This document shows, one piece after another, positions 285 through 47,916 of a stretch of DNA of 64,000 nucleotides. The notes under the pieces were generated by a model, which was not told the DNA's origin, made no database searches, and was given only the letters and a program-made list of their open reading frames with translations. Position numbers and translations under genes: made by a program. The stretch is taken from NCBI GenBank assembly GCA_045651405.1, contig JAZRSH010000029.1, positions 97,960 through 161,959 of the forward strand. Direction: 5' to 3'. Source of the stretch: Christensenellaceae bacterium. Its GTDB lineage: Bacteria; Bacillota; Clostridia; Christensenellales; Borkfalkiaceae. Numbering within the stretch: the stretch's first letter is position 1; each line of letters opens with the position of its first letter.

Positions 285-510
285 ATAAAACCGTTGCAAA
301 AAAGAGTAGTGTTTTTTGTTTTTCAGAGAGTAGGCGTATGGTGCAAGCCTATAAGATAAAAAGTATGAAAGTGCATTTTGCTATTAAGGGGAATTAACAG
401 TTCACGGGTTGCTCCGTTAACGGCAAATGAGTATTCTTATTTTTAAGAATAGAAGTAAAGTGGAACCACGCCAAGAACGTCTTTATATGTCTTGGCGATT
501 TTTTATTTTT
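285..510 (+). promoter_or_regulatory. T-box leader (candidate Cys specifier UGC) with intrinsic terminator
   Basis: AGAGAG at 325-330. UGC followed by A at 342-345 within GGUGCAAGCC. T-box core AAAGUGGAACCACGCC at 457-472 overlaps the terminator 5' arm CGCCAAGA (469-476), which pairs with TCTTGGCG (490-497) and is followed by a U-run to 510. It lies directly upstream of cysE-cysS, as in Bacillus. Confidence 0.75.
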
Positions 511-519
511 AGGAGTATT

Positions 520-1170
520 ATGTCAAAAGCATCAAGAATGGATATTGACGCCGCAATGGCTAACGACCCTGCTGCGAGAACGCGTTTTGAAGTGTGGCTT
601 ACCTATTCAGGCATAAAGGCGTTAAGGGCGCACAGGCTCGCTAACTTTTTCTACCGCCATAATATGAAATTACTTGCAAGGATAATAAGCCAAAACGCAA
701 AAAGGCGTACGGGTATAGAAATTCACCCTGCGGCAACAATTGAACCGGGCGTTTTTATCGACCACGGCGAAGGGGTTGTTATCGGCGAAACTGCGGTTGT
801 AGAAACGGGCGTTGTCATTTATCAAGGCGTAACGCTTGGCGGTACGGGTAAGGACAAAGGCAATAAGCGTCACCCAACTATCAAACGTGATTCCGTTATA
901 AGTGCGGGTGCGAAAATTTTAGGTGGAATTACCGTAAACGAAAACTGTAAAATTGGTGCAAGTAGCGTCGTGCTTTCTGACGTTCCTGCAAACTCTACGG
1001 TAGTTGGTATTCCAGGTAAAGTAGTAAAAACTAACGGTCAAAGGGTACACGATTTACTGCAAGATAAATCAGACCCAATAGCCGAAGAAATTAAAAACAA
1101 TAGAATTATCATTGAAAAATTATCTAAGCGAATAGACGAGCTTGAAAAGCAAATTAACGAGGTGAAATAA
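520..1170 (+). CDS. cysE: serine O-acetyltransferase
   Basis: Hexapeptide-repeat beta-helix (GIEIHPAATIEPGVFIDHGEGVVIGETAVVETGVVIYQGVTLGG). Start moved from track ORF 427 to in-frame ATG 520 (AGGAG at 511-515), because 427-519 is the T-box terminator. Confidence 0.9.
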   Translation: MSKASRMDIDAAMANDPAARTRFEVWLTYSGIKALRAHRLANFFYRHNMKLLARIISQNAKRRTGIEIHPAATIEPGVFIDHGEGVVIGETAVVETGVVIYQGVTLGGTGKDKGNKRHPTIKRDSVISAGAKILGGITVNENCKIGASSVVLSDVPANSTVVGIPGKVVKTNGQRVHDLLQDKSDPIAEEIKNNRIIIEKLSKRIDELEKQINEVK

Positions 1171-16029: not shown

Positions 16030-17640
16030 ATGTATCAATATACTCAAGAACAACTTGATTCTATAAAGAAAGTAGAGGCTTCAAGAAAAGAAAGACTTGA
16101 AAACCTTCACCCAAGAATGACTGCTGATGAAAAAACTGCAGTATTACAAGAATTCCACCCAGACTATATCGAAGGTGCATACGAAACTTTAAAAATTGGT
16201 CCTAACAAAGGCGAAAAAGTTCTTCACGAACTCGCTGACCTTTTACAAGGTAAATCAAGGGTTGGTTCTCTTAAATTCGACCTTAAAAAACCTGATTATG
16301 ACGTAGACGTTTTAGTTATCGGTGGCGGTGGCGCAGGTTCTTCTGCAGCGGTTACAGCACACGCTAACGGCGCTAACGTTATGATTGTTACTAAACTTAG
16401 AATTGGTGACGCTAACTCAATGATGGCTGAAGGTGGTATCCAAGCGGCTGATAAGCCTAACGATAGCCCTGCTAGGCACTATCTTGATGCTTTTGGTGGC
16501 GGTCACTTTGCTGCTAAACCTTGCTTACTTGAAAAACTCGTTAAAGAAGCACCTGACGCTATCCGTTGGCTTTCTGACCTTGGCGTTATGTTCGATAAAG
16601 ACGAAAACGGTAACATGGTAACTACACACGGTGGCGGTACTTCAAGAAAGAGAATGCACGCTTGTAAAGACTATTCAGGTGCTGAAATCATGAGAACTCT
16701 TCGTGACGAAGTTATCAATAGGGGTATTCCTGTAATTGACTTTACTTCTGCTGTTGAAATCATTAAAGATGAAAACGGTAAAGCAGCCGGTGCAGTTTTA
16801 GTTAATATGGAAACTAACGAAGTTTTAATTGCTAAAGCAAAAACAGTTATCATCGCAACTGGTGGTGCTGGTAGACTTCACTATCAAGGCTTCCCAACTT
16901 CTAACCACTACGGTGCAACTGCCGACGGTTTAGTTCTTGCTTACCGTGCAGGCGCAAAACTTTTATACGCAGATACTTTACAATATCACCCAACTGGTGC
17001 TGCAGAACCTACACAAATTTACGGTGCGTTAGTTACTGAAAAAGTACGTTCACTTGGCGCACAACTCGTTAACAAAGATGGTAAACCTTTCGTTTACTCA
17101 CTTGAAACACGTGACGTAACTGCATCTACTATCATTAGAGAATGTAAAGGTCGTGGCAACGGTGTTAAAACTACTGACGGCGAAGGCGTATGGCTTGATA
17201 CACCAATGATTGAAATTATCGGTGGCGAAGGCACTATCGAAAAGAGAATCCCTGCAATGATGAGAATGTTCGGTAAATACGGTATCGATATTAGAAAAGA
17301 ACCTATCTTAATTTACCCAACACTTCACTACCAAAACGGTGGTATCGATATCAATGCTGACGGCGAAACTACAAACATAGAAAACCTTTACGTTGCAGGT
17401 GAGGCTGTTGGTGGTATCCACGGTAGAAACCGTCTTATGGGTAACTCACTTTTAGATATTATCGTATTCGGTAGAAATGCTGGTAAATATGCAAGTGAAA
17501 AGGTTAAAGCAGGCGTTAAAGTTGGCAAACTTACTTTAGACCACGTTAAAGCCTTTGAAAAAGAAAGAAAAGAAGCAGGTATTAAATCTGATATTCTTTC
17601 ACCAAAGCTTTTACCTGATTATACTCGCAAAGACCTTTAA
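16030..17640 (+). CDS. frdA: SdhA/FrdA-like flavoprotein (probable soluble fumarate reductase catalytic subunit)
   Basis: VLVIGGGGAGSSAAV FAD fold, LQYHPTG, GEAVGGIHGRNRLMGNSLLDIIVFG. The context of mdh, fumC and an Fe-S partner supports the call. Confidence 0.7.
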   Translation: MYQYTQEQLDSIKKVEASRKERLENLHPRMTADEKTAVLQEFHPDYIEGAYETLKIGPNKGEKVLHELADLLQGKSRVGSLKFDLKKPDYDVDVLVIGGGGAGSSAAVTAHANGANVMIVTKLRIGDANSMMAEGGIQAADKPNDSPARHYLDAFGGGHFAAKPCLLEKLVKEAPDAIRWLSDLGVMFDKDENGNMVTTHGGGTSRKRMHACKDYSGAEIMRTLRDEVINRGIPVIDFTSAVEIIKDENGKAAGAVLVNMETNEVLIAKAKTVIIATGGAGRLHYQGFPTSNHYGATADGLVLAYRAGAKLLYADTLQYHPTGAAEPTQIYGALVTEKVRSLGAQLVNKDGKPFVYSLETRDVTASTIIRECKGRGNGVKTTDGEGVWLDTPMIEIIGGEGTIEKRIPAMMRMFGKYGIDIRKEPILIYPTLHYQNGGIDINADGETTNIENLYVAGEAVGGIHGRNRLMGNSLLDIIVFGRNAGKYASEKVKAGVKVGKLTLDHVKAFEKERKEAGIKSDILSPKLLPDYTRKDL

Positions 17641-17763
17641 AAGTCTATAAGCGTCGCAATACTGCGTTTCTGCAAAGTGGTTTTAGACTTTGATGACCAA
17701 AAAGGTCTATCAAATCCTAAACCATTTGCGAGCCTTGTCTTGCTCGCTTCTATCCTTTTAAAG
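17635..17763 (+). repeat. family-1 long-hairpin intergenic repeat, copy A (overlaps the frdA stop codon)
   Basis: Shares the blocks GCAATACTGCGTTTCTGCAAA, GATGACCAAAA(A)GGTCTATCA and TTGCGAGCCTTGTCTTGCT with 46226-46350. Closing stem CTTTAAAAG / CTTTTAAAG. Confidence 0.85.
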
Positions 17764-17808
17764 TAGCACTTTATTTAAGTGTGGTATAAATTTTATTTAA
17801 AAAATTAT

Positions 17809-17836
17809 AATACGGACGTAATGCTACGTCCGTATT
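17809..17836 (+). other. perfect 12-bp hairpin in the 5' region of the AAE transporter gene
   Basis: AATACGGACGTA atgc TACGTCCGTATT. No U-run on the plus strand. 26 nt before ATG 17862. Confidence 0.6.
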
Positions 17837-17861
17837 AGTCCGTAAAAATATAGGAGATATT

Positions 17862-19259
17862 ATGGAAAAATCTAACAAAAAAAGCCTTAAATGGCTTTGG
17901 ATTACTCTTGCTATACTCGCAGTAGTAGCTCTTGCTGCTTGGTGTGTATATAATGCTTTAGAGGCACATAGTGTTAATAAAGTTTTTAAATTTAGTACAA
18001 CAGCATCATTATTTATTTTAATATTTATAATAACAGCTCTTGGTTACTTACTTGGTTCTATAACTATTAAAGGTGTTAACTTAGGTACTGCAGGCGTGTT
18101 CTTGGTTGCTATCTTATTTGGGTTTATATGCACTCTTAATTTTGGTAATGTTCCAGTTATTGGTTCTTTCCACGTTGAATCAGGCGATACTATTGTAGAA
18201 ACAATGGGTGGCTCTATTCAAAACTTAGGTCTTATTATGTTCGTAGGTTCAGTAGGTCTTATTGCAGGTCCTAACTTCTTTAAAAACCTTAAAAAGAACT
18301 TTAAAACCTATATCGTTTTAGGTGCAATAATTATTATATCATCAACTGCTGTTGCGGTATTATTTACTGCTATAACTGATTATGGCTCAGGTTTTTGGGC
18401 AGGTATTTTATCAGGTGCGTTAACTACTACCCCTGGTTTCTCTGCTGCACAAGAAGCAACTCTTTCAGTTCTTCAATCATTACCTCAATATGCTAATCTT
18501 ACTACTGAGGCTTTAAGACAACTTCCAGAGTACACCATTATTTCAGTAGGTCATGCTATTGCTTATCCTTTCGGTGTTGTAGGCGTAGTATTATTCGTTC
18601 AACTTCTTCCTAAACTTTTAAAAGCTGATATGGTTAAAGAACGTGAACTTTTAAGAATTGGTGGAGATGAGGGTGAAAAATCTTATTCAAATCTTTTCGA
18701 AGTTGAACCTTTTGGTCTTGTTCCCGTTGCTTTAACAGTAGTTTTAGGATTAGTATTAGGCGCTGTTAAAATTCCATTATTTGGTGGTTCTGCATTTAGT
18801 TTAGGAACAACTGGTGGTGTGCTTATTATCGGTTTAGTTTTAGGTCACTTTGGTAAAATTGGCAAAATATCTCTTCAAGTTCCAGCAACTACACTTAAAC
18901 TTTTAAGAGAATTTGGTTTAATGCTTTTCCTTTTAGGTGCAGGTTTTGAAGGTGGTGTAAGTTTAGTTGCATCATTATCAGGCAAAGGTGCTGATATTGT
19001 TATTTTAGGTTTTGTTGGTGGTGCATGTATGACTATTGCTCCAATGATTGTAGGTTTTATTTTAGCAAAACTTGTTATGAAACTTCCACTTTTAAATACT
19101 TTAGGTTCAATTACTGGTGGTATGACTTCTACTCCAGCACTTGGAACGCTTATCAACACTGCTAAAACTGAAGATGTAGCGTCTGCTTACGCATCAACTT
19201 ATCCAATTGCACTTGTGCTTGTAGTACTTGCTTGTCAATTAATGATTGTTTTTATGTAG
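17862..19259 (+). CDS. AAE (aspartate:alanine exchanger / YidE-YbjL) family transporter
   Basis: Two homologous halves with the family motif (GVNLGTAGVFLVAILFG and SLGTTGGVLIIGLVLG). Polytopic. No central TrkA-C domains apparent. Confidence 0.65.
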   Translation: MEKSNKKSLKWLWITLAILAVVALAAWCVYNALEAHSVNKVFKFSTTASLFILIFIITALGYLLGSITIKGVNLGTAGVFLVAILFGFICTLNFGNVPVIGSFHVESGDTIVETMGGSIQNLGLIMFVGSVGLIAGPNFFKNLKKNFKTYIVLGAIIIISSTAVAVLFTAITDYGSGFWAGILSGALTTTPGFSAAQEATLSVLQSLPQYANLTTEALRQLPEYTIISVGHAIAYPFGVVGVVLFVQLLPKLLKADMVKERELLRIGGDEGEKSYSNLFEVEPFGLVPVALTVVLGLVLGAVKIPLFGGSAFSLGTTGGVLIIGLVLGHFGKIGKISLQVPATTLKLLREFGLMLFLLGAGFEGGVSLVASLSGKGADIVILGFVGGACMTIAPMIVGFILAKLVMKLPLLNTLGSITGGMTSTPALGTLINTAKTEDVASAYASTYPIALVLVVLACQLMIVFM

Positions 19260-19418
19260 GGCTCTTCAATATCAACGGTCGATAAATTCCTAATGAAACG
19301 CGTCGTAATAGTGCGTTAAACCCGCTCGAAAATATGTAAACTATTATCTTCGGGGTTTGCCTTCTCTTACTTGCGTTTGATTAGTCCTTTTAAATCAACC
19401 TTATGGTATTTCATCGCC
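19260..19418 (+). repeat. family-2 long-hairpin intergenic repeat, copy A
   Basis: 159 bp starting 1 nt after stop TAG 19257-19259. Aligns end to end with 20806-20964 and 27161-27319. Confidence 0.9.
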
Positions 19419-19420
19419 TT

Positions 19421-19461
19421 GGCTCTTCAATATCAACGGTTGATAAAGACTTAATGAAACA
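19421..19461 (+). repeat. family-2 repeat, 5'-arm-only partial copy
   Basis: GGCTCTTCAATATCAACGGTTGATAAAGACTTAATGAAACA repeats the first ~41 nt of the element, then runs into the terminator. Confidence 0.85.
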
Positions 19462-19463
19462 AT

Positions 19464-19488
19464 AAAACACCCTTTTTAGGGTGTTTTT
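19464..19488 (+). terminator. intrinsic terminator
   Basis: AAAACACCC tttt(t)a GGGTGTTTTT. Confidence 0.8.
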
Positions 19489-19517
19489 ATATAACAAATC
19501 AAAATAAGGATAATAAA

Positions 19518-20804
19518 ATGGTTAACTTAAAAGATTTTATTAAAGGCGATGAAGTTTTACACACCAAAGCCTTTCAACAAGCGGTTGATTATTGTTACAG
19601 TAAAGGTGGCGAACCTTTATTTATTCCTTTTGGAACGTACACGCTTGGCACGGTTATTTTAAAAGCTAACACAACTTTAATATTTGAAGACGGCGCTAAA
19701 ATTTTAGGTTCTAAAAATATTGACGACTTTTTAGCCGATGATATCCCTTTAAACAAATATCAAGATATGTCGCACAGTAGTTATACAAGGTCACTTTTTT
19801 ATGCTAAAAACGCCAAAAACATAACTATTAAGGGTAAAGGTGTTATTGATATGCAATCGGCTTGGGACCACGATAACAAGCGTAATTCTAAGCATCGTGG
19901 GGCAAAGGTAATAGCGTTTGACCACGTTGACGGAGTAGTCATTGAAGATATTAAGTTATTTTATGCTACCGATATCGGCATTTTGCTTGGAAGATGTAAA
20001 AACTGCTTTGTTAAAGGGCTTTATATCGAAACGCATATTGACGGCATTAGTCCCGACGGATGTGAAAACGTTGTTATATCCGATTGTATTTTAAAATGCG
20101 GTGACGACGGCATTGTGTTAAAGTCTTCATACTACGATAACGAGTTAGTTGCTTGCGAAAGAATAACCATAACTAACTGTATTGTAAGTAGTAGATGTTC
20201 GGCTATTAAATTTGGAACGGAGTCTAACGGCGATTTTAGATACGTTACAATATCTAATTGTGTAGTTCACAATACCCGTTGCGCAGGGCTTGCAATAGAA
20301 AGTTGTGATGGCGGTAATATTTACGGTGTTACAATTACAAATATTACAATGCAAAACGTAGGTTGCCCTATATTTATTTTCGGCGGGCTTAGAATGCGCG
20401 GACCTAAAGAATTACAAGCAGGTAGCATTAACGATATAACCATTTCAAATATCTATGCAGACTGTCACGAAAACATTTATAAATCTATAGATTTCTATTA
20501 TGATTTAATTAAAGACGGCATTGATATTTCAAACGTATCCTTCCCAAGCTTAATTATTAATTATACAGAAAACGAAATGAAAAACATTAACTTATCTAAC
20601 GTAACAGTTAAATGTTACGGCGGTAAAAGTGCAAGTGGTGCGGAATTTAAAGATAATCCGCTTGGCTATCCATCGCACGAAATGTTTGGATTCCATCTTC
20701 CTGCATACGGGCTTATCGTTAAAAACTGCAAAGGCTTAAACTTAAATAACGTTAAGTTTGAACTTGTAAATCAAGACGAACGCCCAGAAAGAATAATTGA
20801 ATAA
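19518..20804 (+). CDS. glycoside hydrolase family 28-like (polygalacturonase-type beta-helix) protein
   Basis: N-terminal pectate-lyase-fold region (AFQQAVDYC..GGEPLFIPFGTYTLG). ISPDGCENV and CGDDGIVLKS resemble the GH28 NxDG and GDD motifs. The usual GHG motif is not evident. Confidence 0.6.
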   Translation: MVNLKDFIKGDEVLHTKAFQQAVDYCYSKGGEPLFIPFGTYTLGTVILKANTTLIFEDGAKILGSKNIDDFLADDIPLNKYQDMSHSSYTRSLFYAKNAKNITIKGKGVIDMQSAWDHDNKRNSKHRGAKVIAFDHVDGVVIEDIKLFYATDIGILLGRCKNCFVKGLYIETHIDGISPDGCENVVISDCILKCGDDGIVLKSSYYDNELVACERITITNCIVSSRCSAIKFGTESNGDFRYVTISNCVVHNTRCAGLAIESCDGGNIYGVTITNITMQNVGCPIFIFGGLRMRGPKELQAGSINDITISNIYADCHENIYKSIDFYYDLIKDGIDISNVSFPSLIINYTENEMKNINLSNVTVKCYGGKSASGAEFKDNPLGYPSHEMFGFHLPAYGLIVKNCKGLNLNNVKFELVNQDERPERIIE

Positions 20805-20805
20805 A

Positions 20806-20964
20806 GGCTCTTCAACGTCAACGGTTGATAAAGTCCTAATGAAACGCGGCGTAATAGTGCGTTAAAGCCCTTGAAAAGATGTAAACTCTTATCTTCGGGT
20901 GTTTGCCTTCTATTACTTGTGTTTGATTTGTCCTTTAGTATCAACCTTATGGTTTTTCATCACC
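20806..20964 (+). repeat. family-2 long-hairpin intergenic repeat, copy B
   Basis: Starts 2 nt after stop TAA 20802-20804. Near-identical to copy A over 159 bp. Confidence 0.9.
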
Positions 20965-20971
20965 TAATAAA

Positions 20972-20999
20972 AAAGACTAACGAATTATCGTTAGTCTTT
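20972..20999. terminator. bidirectional terminator (GH28-like / GNAT)
   Basis: AAGACTAACGA atta TCGTTAGTCTT with A-run before and T-run after. Confidence 0.8.
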
Positions 21000-21002
21000 A
21001 TT

Positions 21003-27160: not shown

Positions 27161-27319
27161 GGCTTAGTTGCTTGTTCAATTGATAAAGCCCTAATGAAAT
27201 ACTGCGTAATACTTTGTTAAACCCGCTTGGCAATACGGCAAGTATAGCCTTCGGGGTTTGCCTAGTCTTACTTGTATTTGATTAGTCCTTTTGTATCAAT
27301 CTCACTTCGCACCTGCGCC
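27161..27319 (+). repeat. family-2 long-hairpin intergenic repeat, copy C (diverged)
   Basis: Starts immediately after stop TAA 27158-27160. Same 159-bp architecture with many paired substitutions. Confidence 0.85.
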
Positions 27320-31223: not shown

Positions 31224-32020
31224 ACGAAAATTTAAAACAAGCATTAAAAGACGTTAAGTACGTTTTACTTGACATGGACGGAACAATCTACCTTGGCAAC
31301 AGCCCAATCGGCGATATGCCTAACACATTGAAGTTTTTAAGGGAACAAGGCAAAAAAATCATTTACCTTTCTAACAACACTTCAAAAAGTGCGGATACTT
31401 ATATCGAAAAGTTAACTAAACTTGGCTTTTATGATGAAAGGGACGAAATTTATTCAGCAGGCGTTGCTACTTGCGAATATTTAAATAAATTCTACCCAGG
31501 TAAAAAAGTTTACGCTATGGCAACTAAATCATACAAGGCAGAACTTTTAAAATACGGCATCAACCTTTCGGAAGATGAAGACTGCGATATCGCCCTTATC
31601 ACTTACGATACGGAACTTAACTACAAAAGTTTATGCGCTTTAGTTAAAAACCTTGATAACGGTGCGTTATATATAGCAACTCACCCTGATAACCGTTGCA
31701 ATACTGAAGATGGATTTATCCCTGATATCGGTTCTTTCATTAAGATGATTGAAGTGTCTAACGGCTATACACCTATTCTCGCTATTGGTAAACCTAATAC
31801 CATTATGGGTGACAACTTAAAGGAAAGACTTCACGTTGAAAGTAAAAACTTCCTTATGGTTGGCGATAGACTTGATACGGATATTTGTTTCGGCTTAAAC
31901 AACAAGTTTAATACTATGCTCGTTTTAAGTGGCGAAACTACTATGGAAGACGTGCAAAAATATCCACGTAAACCAGATTTTATTTTAGATTCGCTTAACG
32001 ATATAAAAAATTATTTCTAA
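31220..32020 (+). CDS. HAD-IIA family hydrolase (NagD/AraL-like sugar phosphatase)
   Basis: LLDMDGTIYLG motif I, LSNNTS motif II, MVGDRLDTDI motif IV. ATG 31220 overlaps the upstream stop (ATGA). Confidence 0.8.
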   Translation: MNENLKQALKDVKYVLLDMDGTIYLGNSPIGDMPNTLKFLREQGKKIIYLSNNTSKSADTYIEKLTKLGFYDERDEIYSAGVATCEYLNKFYPGKKVYAMATKSYKAELLKYGINLSEDEDCDIALITYDTELNYKSLCALVKNLDNGALYIATHPDNRCNTEDGFIPDIGSFIKMIEVSNGYTPILAIGKPNTIMGDNLKERLHVESKNFLMVGDRLDTDICFGLNNKFNTMLVLSGETTMEDVQKYPRKPDFILDSLNDIKNYF

Positions 32021-43262: not shown

Positions 43263-46079
43263 ATGCAAGGAAACAAAACTAAGACAATGCTTGTTAAAAT
43301 TTTAAGCATCATTTGTTCTTTCTGCTGTTGTTTCGCACTTTGCTTCGGCTTAATCGGCTGTGGTGAAGAAGATCCTGTTGTTGTTTCAATTATCGTTGAA
43401 AATGATATTCTTAAAGTTACATATTCAAACGGTGACGTTAAGACTATCGGTTCTGTAAAAGGCGATAAAGGTGACAAAGGTGAAGACGGCGCTCAAGGCG
43501 AAAAAGGTGACAAAGGCGACAAAGGCGATAAAGGCGAACAAGGCGAACAAGGTATTCAAGGTGAAACTGGTGCTACTGGTGCTACTGGTGCTGCTGGTGA
43601 AGACGGTGAAGATTACAACTCTTTCGCTAAAGACTGCGTACACAACCGTGTTGAATACGTATTAGCTTACCCTACATGTTCAACTGAAGGTATCATGATT
43701 AGTGCATGTATCGAATGTAACGGTATGGAAACTATCGTTCTTGAAAAAGAAGAAGATTTACACGGTCAAATCGTAACATCTTACATTCTTGGTCCTGAAG
43801 ATGCACTCGTTCCTGCTTTAACATTTGAAGCATACGCAACTGAAAAAGGCGCTAACTACGTTGCACCTACTTGTACATCAAAAGGTAAAAACGATGAAAT
43901 TTGTGCTGAATGTAAAGCAGTATTAAATACTGATGAAATCGACATTCTTGATCACAAGAACGAAGACGGTACTTCTGCTCGTATCCACTTCAGAGGTCCT
44001 AGAGAAAATGGTAACATCTGTATGGATGGTATCTACGAAGGCGATTTATGCTTACTTTGTGGCGATGTAAACAACACAGCTTATACTCCAGCTGCTGGTC
44101 ACCACACTGCTGATGATACTTGGACTTACGTTGATGGCGTTAAACCTGCTATTGGTGCTGGCGCTCAAGCAACTGGTACATGTACTGAATGTAAAGAAAC
44201 TATCGTTATCGATCTCCCTGCTTTAGACGCTAAAGTTAACGGTGAATTCGTTTACGATATTGACGTAACTGTTCCTGCATCTTGTTTTGCTGCTGGTAAC
44301 ACTAACTACACTTATGAAGATATCACTGGTTTCGTAGCTGACGTTGACGTTGCTACAAGCACAGCTCACAAATTTGCTGGTCAAGATATCGATTTAGGTT
44401 ATGTATTTACAGAAGCTGAAGTTACTGCATTAGGATTTGATATTATTTCTAACGTTCCATCTTCTTGCTTAGAAAAAGGTGAAGCAGTATTTGAATGTAC
44501 AGTTTGTGCAAAAACTAATAAAGTATTCTTCATTGGTAACCACAAAGCTGTTGAAGGTAAAGACGTTGTTACTGCTCCTACATGTCTTGCTAAAGGTTAC
44601 ACAACTCACACATGTTCTGTTTGTGCCGTTGAATACAAAGACACTTATGTTGACAAACTTCCACACAGCTTCGTTGTAGAAAGTGAAAAAGTTAACGAAG
44701 AAGACGATACTAAACTTGACGTTGTATTTGCTTGTACAACTCCAGGTTGCACAGAAAAACTTTCTATTACTGGTACAGTTAACACTGCTGAAAGCTATGC
44801 TGCTGACTGTGGTAAAGATGGTAAAGTTGTTTACGACTACATTGACCTCGAAGGCGCACCTCAAAAATTCGTTGTAGTTCTTCCTAAACTTACTGACCAC
44901 ACAATCGTAGCTGGTACAACTCTTAAAGACTTCAATGCTAAACCAGAAGGTTACACTTACAGTGCTATTAAAGCATTTGAAACAGCTGGTACTCTTAGAT
45001 TCATTGATAACGTTCCTACAGCATGTAACGTTAAAGGTGAAGCAGTATTCGAATGTATTGACTGTCATAAGACAATTAAGATTAACGTTTACGCTGACCA
45101 CGACTTCGGTACTAACGAAGAAGTTTACCACAAACATACTCAAACTGCAGTTGGTTACACTACTAAATTATGTAACTCTTGTGGTGAAGATATTGTTATC
45201 GCAAAAGACCCTGCTATCGTTCACACTTGGAAATTCCTTTCTAAAGTTAAAAACGAAAACGAAGATACTTACACTGTAGCATTCGAATGTACTGTTTGTG
45301 GCAAACAAGAATCTGACGTTATCGCTACATTAACAAATACTGTTCCTGCAACTTGCGAAGGTCCTGGTAAATACGTTTACAGCTACACAGATAAAGACGG
45401 TAACCCTCAATCATTTGATATTGAAATCCCAGCTCTTACAGACCATACAATCGTAACTGATGTAACTCTTAAAGATTTCAATGCTAATCCAGAAGGTTAT
45501 ACTTACAGCGCAATCGAAGCTTACGTAACAGCTGGTGTTCTTAGATTCATTGATAACGTTCCTACAGCATGTAACGTAAAAGGTGAAGCAGTATTTGAAT
45601 GCTTATCTTGCACTAAGACTATTAAGATTAACGTTTATGCTGACCACGATTATGAACTTCAACCAGTTGTAGAACCTACTCACGCAACTATCGGTGAAAA
45701 ATTCGAAATCTGTAAAGATTGTGGTGACAAACACGTTATCGAAACTTATGACGTAGTTCCTCACGTTTACGGTGATCCAGTTCTCAATGCAGACGGTAAA
45801 TTCGAATTTACATGTGCTTGCGGTCACGTTGAAGTAGTTAACGCTGTTAAAGTTGTAGTTACTGCTCCTACTTGTACAGCTGGTGGTTACACTGATTACT
45901 ACTTAGATGCAACTAACTTCGTTCGTGCTAACTACACAGATGCTCTTGGTCACGACTATGAAGAAGACGTTATCGTTAACTTCGAAGTTGAAATCAACGG
46001 TATCATGCGTAAATGTAAAGCAATCTTATGTAAAGTTTGCGGCGAAGCATTAATCATTGAAGTTGAACCAGAACTTTAA
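43263..46079 (+). CDS. large secreted lipoprotein with collagen-like triple-helix repeat and multiple Cys-rich modules
   Basis: Lipobox LIGCGEE, 17 G-X-Y triplets, recurrent (A/V)P(T/S)C..KG....C..C modules. RBS AAGGAGAA upstream. Confidence 0.85.
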   Translation: MQGNKTKTMLVKILSIICSFCCCFALCFGLIGCGEEDPVVVSIIVENDILKVTYSNGDVKTIGSVKGDKGDKGEDGAQGEKGDKGDKGDKGEQGEQGIQGETGATGATGAAGEDGEDYNSFAKDCVHNRVEYVLAYPTCSTEGIMISACIECNGMETIVLEKEEDLHGQIVTSYILGPEDALVPALTFEAYATEKGANYVAPTCTSKGKNDEICAECKAVLNTDEIDILDHKNEDGTSARIHFRGPRENGNICMDGIYEGDLCLLCGDVNNTAYTPAAGHHTADDTWTYVDGVKPAIGAGAQATGTCTECKETIVIDLPALDAKVNGEFVYDIDVTVPASCFAAGNTNYTYEDITGFVADVDVATSTAHKFAGQDIDLGYVFTEAEVTALGFDIISNVPSSCLEKGEAVFECTVCAKTNKVFFIGNHKAVEGKDVVTAPTCLAKGYTTHTCSVCAVEYKDTYVDKLPHSFVVESEKVNEEDDTKLDVVFACTTPGCTEKLSITGTVNTAESYAADCGKDGKVVYDYIDLEGAPQKFVVVLPKLTDHTIVAGTTLKDFNAKPEGYTYSAIKAFETAGTLRFIDNVPTACNVKGEAVFECIDCHKTIKINVYADHDFGTNEEVYHKHTQTAVGYTTKLCNSCGEDIVIAKDPAIVHTWKFLSKVKNENEDTYTVAFECTVCGKQESDVIATLTNTVPATCEGPGKYVYSYTDKDGNPQSFDIEIPALTDHTIVTDVTLKDFNANPEGYTYSAIEAYVTAGVLRFIDNVPTACNVKGEAVFECLSCTKTIKINVYADHDYELQPVVEPTHATIGEKFEICKDCGDKHVIETYDVVPHVYGDPVLNADGKFEFTCACGHVEVVNAVKVVVTAPTCTAGGYTDYYLDATNFVRANYTDALGHDYEEDVIVNFEVEINGIMRKCKAILCKVCGEALIIEVEPEL
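43461..43613 (+). repeat. collagen-like (G-X-Y)17 coding repeat
   Basis: GDKGDKGEDGAQGEKGDKGDKGDKGEQGEQGIQGETGATGATGAAGEDGED. Confidence 0.95.
44721..45830 (+). repeat. intragenic tandem duplication (two ~180-aa modules)
   Basis: LTDHTIVAGTTLKDFNAKPEGYTYSAIKAFETAGTLRFIDNVPTACNVKGEAVFECIDCHKTIKINVYADHD aligns with LTDHTIVTDVTLKDFNANPEGYTYSAIEAYVTAGVLRFIDNVPTACNVKGEAVFECLSCTKTIKINVYADHD. Boundaries are approximate. Confidence 0.85.
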
Positions 46080-46128: not shown

Positions 46129-46194
46129 CCCAAAAAATTAATTCTGCAAAGTTAGCAGTTATACTAACTTAAGGTGGTTTTAAATAGCGGAACA

Positions 46195-46228
46195 GAACGC
46201 TCGACATTAAGTCGGGCGTTCTCTTTTT
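46195..46228 (+). terminator. intrinsic terminator
   Basis: GAACGCTCGAC attaa GTCGGGCGTTC followed by TCTTTTT. Confidence 0.7.
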
Positions 46229-46350
46229 AAAGGCGTATAACCTTTGCAATACTGCGTTTCTGCAAAAAAAGTTTGACTATGATGACCAAAAGGTCTATCA
46301 TATCCACACTTTTTTGCGAGCCTTGTCTTGCTTGGTTCTACGCCTTTAAA
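46226..46350 (+). repeat. family-1 long-hairpin intergenic repeat, copy B
   Basis: Closing stem TTTAAAGGCGTA / TACGCCTTTAAA. Same conserved blocks as 17635-17763. Confidence 0.85.
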
Positions 46351-46362
46351 TAATGTTTTACT

Positions 46363-46487
46363 ATACTTTGTAAGTCTTGTCTAACTTGCTTCTGCACTCT
46401 TAAAATGCCGCTATATTAAGCAAAGGTCTACCAGTCAACTAAACTTTACGAGCCTATCCCAACTTGCTTTTACGCCTTTAAAATATT
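46363..46487 (+). repeat. degenerate partial family-1 units (3'-arm-like, two copies)
   Basis: CTTTGTAAGTCTTGTCTAACTTGCTTCTGCACTCTTAAAA and AAAGGTCTACCAGTCAACTAAACTTTACGAGCCTATCCCAACTTGCTTTTACGCCTTTAAAA parallel the right half of copy B. Confidence 0.6.
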
Positions 46488-47819: not shown

Positions 47820-47916
47820 CATTTTGCTTGCAAAATGATATAACCGTTTTGAATACAAAACGATATAACGCAAGACTTGTCTTGCATATAACTCTTTACG
47901 AAGTAAAGAATATAAC
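47820..47916 (+). repeat. array of four different perfect 7-bp hairpins, each followed by invariant ATATAAC
   Basis: CATTTTGcttgCAAAATG-ATATAAC-CGTTTTGaataCAAAACG-ATATAAC-GCAAGACttGTCTTGC-ATATAAC-TCTTTACgaaGTAAAGA-ATATAAC. Confidence 0.9.

Follow-up and report, generated by a model that had tools for sequence, protein, structure and literature searches.

A family of small mobile palindromic DNA repeats in uncultured gut Clostridia

The window analysed here, a stretch of 64,000 nucleotides (nt) from a Christensenellaceae bacterium (contig JAZRSH010000029.1 of assembly GCA_045651405.1, positions 97,960 to 161,959), contains two hairpins of about 125 bases, referred to as copy A and copy B, which share short conserved blocks separated by helices that differ in sequence but stay complementary. 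The earlier note on this DNA described the pair, implied an RNA structure and suggested that copy A may form the 3' end of the operon upstream of it. This raises the question of whether the hairpins are structured RNAs, a terminator or elements of another nature. According to the comparative analysis presented below, they belong to a family of palindromic DNA repeats, small and mobile, that had not been catalogued before and is found in uncultured gut Clostridia. The favoured explanation, to which we assign a probability of roughly 0.6, is that of a non-autonomous mobile DNA repeat consisting of a single hairpin of ~125 bp, broadly of the MITE (miniature inverted-repeat transposable element) or REPIN kind.

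Two hairpins and their family

Both copies were found at the positions reported earlier. Their features are as follows, the scores being those of R1, the covariance model built for this family (family 1):

17635..17763, plus strand: copy A, full family-1 element (R1 132 bits, E 9e-30), with the outer stem CTTTAAAAG.../...CTTTTAAAG
17663..17671, plus strand: copy A, TGCGTTTCT, which forms the 5' side of an asymmetric internal loop that is conserved
17692..17711, plus strand: copy A, hairpin at the apex, GATGACC-AAAAA-GGTCTATC, in which a single base is bulged
17730..17736, plus strand: copy A, GAGCCTT, which forms the 3' side of that loop
46226..46350, plus strand: copy B, full family-1 element (R1 144 bits, E 1e-32)
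46253..46261, plus strand: copy B, 5' core loop TGCGTTTCT
46318..46324, plus strand: copy B, 3' core loop GAGCCTT

The outer two of the three shared blocks, GCAATACTGCGTTTCTGCAAA and TTGCGAGCCTTGTCTTGCT, occur exactly twice each in the window, with 0.00-0.01 occurrences expected by chance, and the middle block is identical in both copies save for one extra A in copy A. Between the blocks the sequence differs between A and B with complementarity kept, as had been described, and the folds computed for each copy are alike, i.e. a single long imperfect hairpin. The plus strand fold energies are -44.2 kcal/mol for copy A and -48.0 kcal/mol for copy B (z-scores against shuffled sequences of -6.5 and -9.0, respectively), and the minus strand of both copies folds equally well or better.

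A scan for the pattern CTGCGTTTCTGC-N30-60-GCGAGCCTTGTC, with one genome taken per species, yielded 72 exact-core matches at 68 loci, all of which come from gut or rumen metagenome-assembled genomes (MAGs) labelled Clostridia, Clostridiales or Christensenellaceae. R1 produced 91 matches in the sampled loci (designated by L numbers below) and five in the window; an R1 match at 47844-47915 with an E-value of 2.4 was taken as chance. The genome scan and the covariance model together put the size of the family at about 100 copies in about 40 MAG species of Clostridia/Christensenellaceae. The genome found to be nearest to the window is GCA_045613025.1. No match to the family was detected in IMG/VR viral contigs, GenBank phages or PLSDB plasmids.

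The architecture deduced from two copies, a nested hairpin with rewritten helices and conserved blocks, holds over the ~100 copies, and the compensatory changes are systematic, with covariation far above both shuffled and slid controls. Covariation was counted on a hand-drawn structure of 49 pairs, with the 3' partner slid as a control. The 70 distinct full exact-core copies align well and have 85% of cells paired versus 31-44% after sliding, with both-sided change in 38 of the 49 pairs. For 90 distinct model-aligned copies the corresponding values are 86.6% versus 31-45%, and 43 of the 49 pairs vary on both sides, the apical pairs 70-77 with 89-96 among the covarying ones. The 12+12 “invariant” core bases are imposed by the search pattern, and the real variability was read from the ~20 additional copies recovered by R1 only. 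In these pattern-free copies the helix GCAATAC/GTCTTGC covaries (e.g. GTTGGGC/GCCCAAC and GCACAAG/CTTGTGC). No change is seen in the asymmetric internal loop, 5' YGTTW(A)CT / 3' G(A/T)GCCTN, and the apical hairpin and the GAC/YCC loop are also fixed.

The sole match of Rfam 15 at gathering level within the window is a T-box leader at 290-487 (plus strand, 102 bits versus a gathering score of 93), with none at the elements. A permissive Rfam scan of 17550-21000 gave no match centred on any element either; the best one, Phe_leader (19360-19493, 31 bits versus a gathering score of 55), merely clips the 3' end of an element of a related family, family 2 (19277-19400). A search of the literature for a described equivalent returned just general papers on REPINs, MITEs and stem-loop families.

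Turnover, insertion sites and the terminator question

Within genomes the element spreads, orthologous sites may contain or lack it, and its replacement or conversion is much faster than the divergence of the flanks. Copies located at unrelated loci of one genome, with unrelated flanks, match at 118-120 of 120 positions (98-99%). At the copy A site, L070 and L071 share an identical upstream protein and 98.6% identity over 3.1 kb of flank, yet their first elements are just ~80% identical and differ by three compensated swaps in one 7-bp helix. Such divergent elements in near-identical flanks are the outcome of copy replacement or gene conversion rather than stepwise mutation. The same pattern is seen in the comparison of L078 with L079, where the newest full copy adjoins the stop codon and the older ones are right arms starting GCGAGCC or GAGCC.

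The element forms arrays and arm remnants as well. Left-arm remnants terminate at CTGCGTTT, in the 5' core loop, and right-arm remnants begin with GCGAGCC or GAGCC, at the 3' core loop. Left and right arms are found as orphans at similar frequencies (18 left versus 22 right), so that the 5'-truncation bias expected of an RNA/reverse-transcription route is absent and this route was rejected. The two right-arm-like units reported 3' of copy B were both detected, albeit weakly, with an nhmmer right-arm profile, and the suggested local decay or duplication is real and typical of the family, many loci having arrays of full copies and arm remnants:

46373..46404, plus strand: degenerate right-arm remnant 1 after copy B (E 6.5e-4)
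46440..46482, plus strand: remnant 2 after copy B, a degenerate right half that spans the element from the 3' side of the apex up to its end (E 0.04, and the sequence itself)

A left-arm-like match at 31685-31706 lies within coding sequence and was taken as chance. A small hairpin, (G)CACTTTATTTAAGTG, is found at 17766-17782 of the window and also 3' of every unit in L069-L071, L078 and L079, following each element or remnant as if the flank had been duplicated along with the right arms.

Landing takes place at or after TAA/TTTAA, that is, at a stop codon or at the end of a terminator T-run, and in one dominant orientation. With the open reading frames (ORFs) around the copies called crudely, the element and its upstream gene agree in orientation in 76 of 82 cases. 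Of the copies located between genes of the same direction, 46 follow the orientation of the genes and 2 oppose it; another 16 lie between convergent and 4 between divergent genes. The stop codon of the upstream ORF falls within the first 23 nt of the match in 48 of 61 cases; the stop in question is the TAA contained in the TTTAA of the element or in TTATAAAC, or else it lies just 5' of the stem. Left junctions read TAA/TTTAA... (the slash marking the boundary), or else the TTTAA of the element falls on the stop codon. Among the remaining sites, some copies are located directly 3' of the T-run of a terminator, copy B being one of them:

46194..46228, plus strand: terminator-like hairpin and T-run, a host feature directly upstream of copy B (stem 46194-46222, 12 pairs including 7 G-C pairs, CTTTTT tail)

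The genes upstream of the element are ordinary, with orthologues of purF, of an acs-like ligase and of queA (with tgt behind it) recurring across species, and the neighbours in general are housekeeping genes (queA, tgt, purF, the acs-like gene, rpmA, FAD oxidoreductase). Copy B is flanked by a collagen-repeat gene on the plus strand (43263-46079, coding for a 938-aa protein with the collagen triple-helix repeat, PF01391) and by rpmA and rplU, which lie on the minus strand and are convergent to that gene. An outward-facing promoter, TTGTCT-N18-TAAAAT, was considered as a family feature and rejected, being present in just 17 of 82 copies; a promoter-like TTGACT-N17-TATCAT inside copy B is not general to the family.

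At the acs-like loci L012, L013, L027, L051, L008 and L029, the last codons of the ligase gene (...RNKL-stop, AGAAACAAGTTATAA) serve as the outer 5' arm of the element too, and AGAAACAAGTTATAA is repeated ahead of the tandem copies that lie downstream. At the TTATAA of AGAAACAAGTTATAA in L029, a newer full copy has apparently been inserted, with an older right arm left further downstream. Since these codons double as the 5' arm and recur before tandem copies, the last residues of the acs-like ligase may derive from the element.

As for copy A, the reported overlap with the upstream gene was confirmed: the TAA at 17638-17640 of ORF 16030..17640, which codes for a FAD_binding_2 protein (PF00890), sits within the 5' arm of the outer stem. 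A very stable hairpin is thereby placed right behind the last codon of this gene, and a simple scan identified no other plus strand terminator between 17640 and 17862, both of which would suit a Rho-independent terminator of the upstream operon. However, no T-run follows the hairpin of copy A on either strand; in copies A and B as well as in the family consensus the T-run stands before the stem and an A-run after it. Neither whole element was called by the terminator scan, the sole call inside an element being a 5-pair mini-stem with a weak tail at 46316-46331, in the core loop of copy B. Elsewhere the element is intercistronic, lying between queA and tgt and between other same-direction genes with the next gene just 12-60 nt away, and at true transcription-unit ends a canonical stem and T-run terminator follows the element or just precedes it.

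The relatives of the window bear on the same question. The copy A site is filled in the window, where the intergenic region is 221 nt long, and in L069-L071 and L078-L080, whose upstream proteins are 90-97% identical. It is empty in L081 (89% upstream protein identity, 73-nt intergenic region), L072/L073 (87%, 76 nt), L074 (84%, 55 nt) and L075-L077 (83%, 32 nt). The Asp-Al_Ex permease gene thus follows the stop codon closely, at 32-76 nt, in relatives free of the element, which makes the element an insertion between two genes; the FAD_binding_2/Asp-Al_Ex pair looks like a continuing unit that received it. Hence, the suggestion that copy A is the transcription terminator of the operon is not supported, and a terminator function in this place is highly improbable.

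Two further observations concern this intergenic region. The overlap of copy A with the stop codon, at 17635-17647, resembles a 5-nt slippage deletion (gaccTTTAA/TTTAAAG... in L070/L071 versus gaccTTTAA/AAG... in the window). In addition, a native hairpin, TAATACGGACG...CGTCCGTATTA, is located upstream of the Asp-Al_Ex permease gene at 17808-17837 and is kept in L070, L078 and L079; a different hairpin, TTAGCGTTCG...CGAACGCTAA, occupies the same place in L072/L073, L080 and L081, of which L080 carries elements. The hairpin at 17808-17837 was called as a terminator on the minus strand only and may be a leader or regulatory structure.

Folding of the two strands

Wobble pairs are rare in the family. 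With two invariant core cells excluded, 42 G·U versus 87 A·C cells were counted, and the unique helix variants contain 35 G·U versus 71 A·C cells. The mismatches of the plus (sense) strand in these variants comprise 262 pyrimidine·pyrimidine versus 46 purine·purine cells. The antisense strand is the more stable one in 70 of 79 copies under RNA parameters (mean -45.3 versus -38.5 kcal/mol) and in 78 of 79 under DNA parameters (mean -26.1 versus -20.9 kcal/mol). The scarcity of wobble pairs together with the better hairpin of the antisense strand favours single-stranded DNA over mRNA as the molecule that folds. This pattern of strands and mismatches is the reverse of selection on mRNA structure, and the implied reading of the covariation as RNA structure in mRNA seems therefore doubtful.

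In the copies between queA and tgt, from four species, the natural C-terminal coding sequence of queA (...FGDAM[LF]I[IL]-stop) makes up the outer 5' arm, as checked against QueA of B. subtilis and T. thermophilus (PDB 1yy3, 1wdi), and the 3' arm complements the end of queA, with a different sequence in each species. A species-specific 3' arm complementary to queA codons indicates that the stem has been copied from, or kept matched to, its flank, which would reflect selection for a closed hairpin, fold-back templating at the DNA level, or the two together.

The alternative at the mRNA level is a cis-acting structured RNA of the sense transcript, i.e. a module of the 3' untranslated region (UTR) or of the intercistronic space acting in the protection of the upstream message against 3' exonucleases, as a processing site or as a protein-binding loop; the repeat would then have undergone domestication, in line with proposals made for REP and ERIC elements. 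The 46:2 orientation with the upstream gene, the position at the stop codon, the retention of the element after the same orthologous genes in several species, the strong conservation of the non-palindromic loops, the two invariant core U·G cells, which exist on the sense strand only, and the maintenance of the outer stem against changing queA codons would all agree with such a role. Nevertheless, we consider it unlikely: the sense strand is the weaker hairpin in the 70 of 79 copies mentioned, A·C cells are double the G·U cells, and the prevalence of pyrimidine·pyrimidine mismatches on the sense strand runs counter to RNA selection. Furthermore, close relatives lack the element at the site, Rfam contains no match, and the replacement of copies between near-identical strains looks selfish, not functional, as do the arrays of broken copies.

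A function of the bottom (antisense) strand, either as a recombination site analogous to integron attC or as an RNA read from that strand, could also be envisaged. On this strand, which makes the better hairpin in 78 of 79 copies under DNA parameters, those internal mismatches that are conserved turn into G·T wobbles and tandem G·A pairs, and the second helix is closed by AAC/GTT triplets with a small unpaired spacer behind them; where the element lies with respect to ORFs, and in which direction, also matches the geometry of attC sites. The boxes RYYYAAC and GTTRRRY, however, are unmatched beyond the AAC/GTT triplets, the neighbours are housekeeping genes instead of cassette arrays, no integrase was seen at the sampled loci, and the downstream flank contains no conserved promoter that could drive an antisense transcript. 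Taken together, these data render the bottom-strand alternative improbable.

Mobilisation, related families and known systems

In the favoured explanation, the mobile repeat populates the genomes of a clade of Clostridia, uncultured inhabitants of gut and rumen that carry the labels Christensenellaceae, Clostridia or Clostridiales, and its hairpin would matter as single-stranded DNA rather than as mRNA, the arms being Watson-Crick paired with very few wobble intermediates. The better hairpin is consistently that of the antisense strand (relative to the upstream gene), its mismatches being G·T and purine·purine, and the stem may extend into host coding sequence by copying host sequence. The asymmetric loop, 5' YGTTWCT / 3' GWGCCTN, at which the arm remnants break, most likely serves as recognition or cleavage site of a putative structure-specific enzyme. 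Complementarity would be maintained by the requirement of that enzyme, by fold-back templated correction, or by both. The elements of the window would then be passengers, transcribed in 3' UTRs or between cistrons, with any effect on mRNA being secondary.

Several points weigh against this explanation. No recurrent transposase was found among 422 crude ORFs flanking the copies and no mobilising protein was identified among them, nor was an autonomous parent element with the same ends and a transposase seen in ~560 kb of sampled loci. The sole IS200-type gene near copies is that of L011, a Y1 transposase gene at 496-966 (plus strand) situated ~200 nt downstream of the element copy at 153-298; its own end hairpins (CCACCAC...GTGGTGG, ends at ~388-406 and 1073-1093) are unrelated to the element, and the proximity was taken as coincidence. 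At the start of L011, the C-terminal end of another ORF appears transposase-like by eye. A target-site duplication is not definable, because the element ends TTTAA...TTAAA are palindromic and a TA or TTAA duplication is indistinguishable from the inverted repeat. The orientation bias is compatible with gene direction and replication direction alike. The better-folding antisense strand is the leading-strand template if the genes run with replication, as the positive GC skew of the plus strand would have it, and this is the opposite of the IS608 paradigm. Finally, the presence of the element at the same orthologous genes (acs-like, purF, queA-tgt) in several species and the high conservation of the loops would fit a host function equally well.

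Clostridia commonly possess Y1 HUH enzymes, whose substrate is a folded single strand (PMC6006769, PMC5581495). A more specific proposal, which we put forward only tentatively, is that the element is the substrate of a structure-specific system of single-stranded DNA transposition or recombination not yet described in Firmicutes. Its enzyme would recognise the bottom-strand hairpin by way of the conserved asymmetric internal loop and cut at that loop, insertion would proceed in one orientation by stop codons, and the stem would grow by fold-back copying of the gene end; as a variant, the element could be a domesticated host 3'-end module. At the start of L011, the C-terminal end of another ORF appears transposase-like by eye.

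Family 1 is not the only user of its outer stem. Three elements of family 2, so called in the earlier note, are present in the window as weaker relatives of family 1, each beginning ~18-19 nt after the stop codon of a plus strand gene:

19277..19400, plus strand: family-2 element (R1 43 bits, E 9e-8), starting ~18 nt past the stop of the Asp-Al_Ex gene
20823..20946, plus strand: family-2 element (R1 35 bits, E 9e-6), starting ~19 nt past the stop of the Glyco_hydro_28 gene
27178..27301, plus strand: family-2 element (R1 40 bits, E 5e-7)

The gene before the last of these (...DASGRVQR-stop) has an orthologue in L024 that carries a family-1 copy. Compared with family 1, family 2 has a shorter core loop (TGCGTT/GCCTT), a different interior and a related, diverged outer stem, GGTTGATAAAG...CCTAATGAAACGCGGCGTAAT. 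The outer stem TTTAAnnnnTTATAAACnnCGCAA / TTGCyyGTTTCTAAnnnnTTAAA is common in this form to families 1 and 3, the latter having a third type of interior (...CGCAAATCGGCTATTTAGCC...GGCTATAATATCCGCCTTGCTTGTTTCTAAC); family 3 is represented by L080:2809-2920, and L006 and L052 contain right halves of it. On one outer stem, at least three families thus make up a superfamily.

The repeats add an abundant and well-defined family to a poorly studied uncultured gut clade. They are also a warning for the discovery of RNA motifs: the strong “compensatory” covariation observed here is most simply a DNA-level phenomenon of mobile palindromes, copy replacement and fold-back templating, and covariation alone should not be taken for a sign of a structured RNA or a terminator. 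Strict orientation, the stop-codon position, the breakpoints in the core loop and a stem that tracks host queA codons make the family a good system for finding a hairpin-recognising enzyme of Firmicutes and for studying the growth of palindromes into coding sequence. In practical terms, such repeats fragment MAG assemblies and can shift annotated stop codons.

Among the known systems, attC sites are likewise imperfect palindromes of ~60-140 nt that conserve structure rather than sequence; they are located directly 3' of ORFs with their orientation fixed, fold on the bottom strand and have conserved unpaired or extrahelical positions. The R''/R' boxes are not found in the element, whose boxes TTATAAAC and GTTTCTAA share the AAC and GTT triplets only, and its loci lack cassette arrays and an integrase. 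Its hosts are Firmicutes, from which integrons are not known. With the ends of IS200/IS605 elements and PATEs the element shares strand-specific behaviour, insertion beside a short A/T-rich motif (here TAA/TTTAA, which is indistinguishable from the element's own end), DNA hairpins with specific mismatches and a tendency to insert beside an existing copy. Those elements, however, have two separate subterminal hairpins in direct orientation, whereas here the left arm pairs with the right arm over the full length, and the better-folding strand is opposite to that predicted by the IS608 model.

ERIC/IRU, BOX and Correia-type MITEs are similar in being imperfect palindromes of ~100-150 bp that form long stem-loops, lie in intergenic or intercistronic positions, are co-transcribed, use A/T-rich targets containing TA and vary in presence between strains. 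No sequence relationship to ERIC, BOX or Correia elements is known. The termini of the present element, unlike theirs, vary in sequence while pairing is kept, its conserved blocks are asymmetric internal loops instead of terminal inverted repeats, and a 46:2 orientation bias is atypical of those families.

REPINs differ from the element in their proteobacterial hosts, as opposed to a Firmicute clade, and in the REP-type sub-hairpin with a GTAG head, which neither arm of the element contains; REP-like sub-hairpins (e.g. GCCGTT-ATA-AACGGC) occur in one subfamily only, do not covary and were dismissed. The strong single orientation and the abutment on the stop codon set the element apart too, and no RAYT was found at the sampled loci by tblastn with an approximate E. 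coli RAYT sequence as the query. At the same time, the likeness to REPINs is considerable: both are short, non-coding, extragenic and multi-copy, with the whole unit forming a long imperfect hairpin, several subfamilies per genome and arms that stay complementary, and both persist at orthologous sites yet move within genomes, presumably as folded single-stranded DNA. As in MITEs, the elements are small, non-coding and multi-copy, with near-identical copies at unrelated loci, presence/absence polymorphism and, in the outer stem, terminal inverted repeats common to other families.

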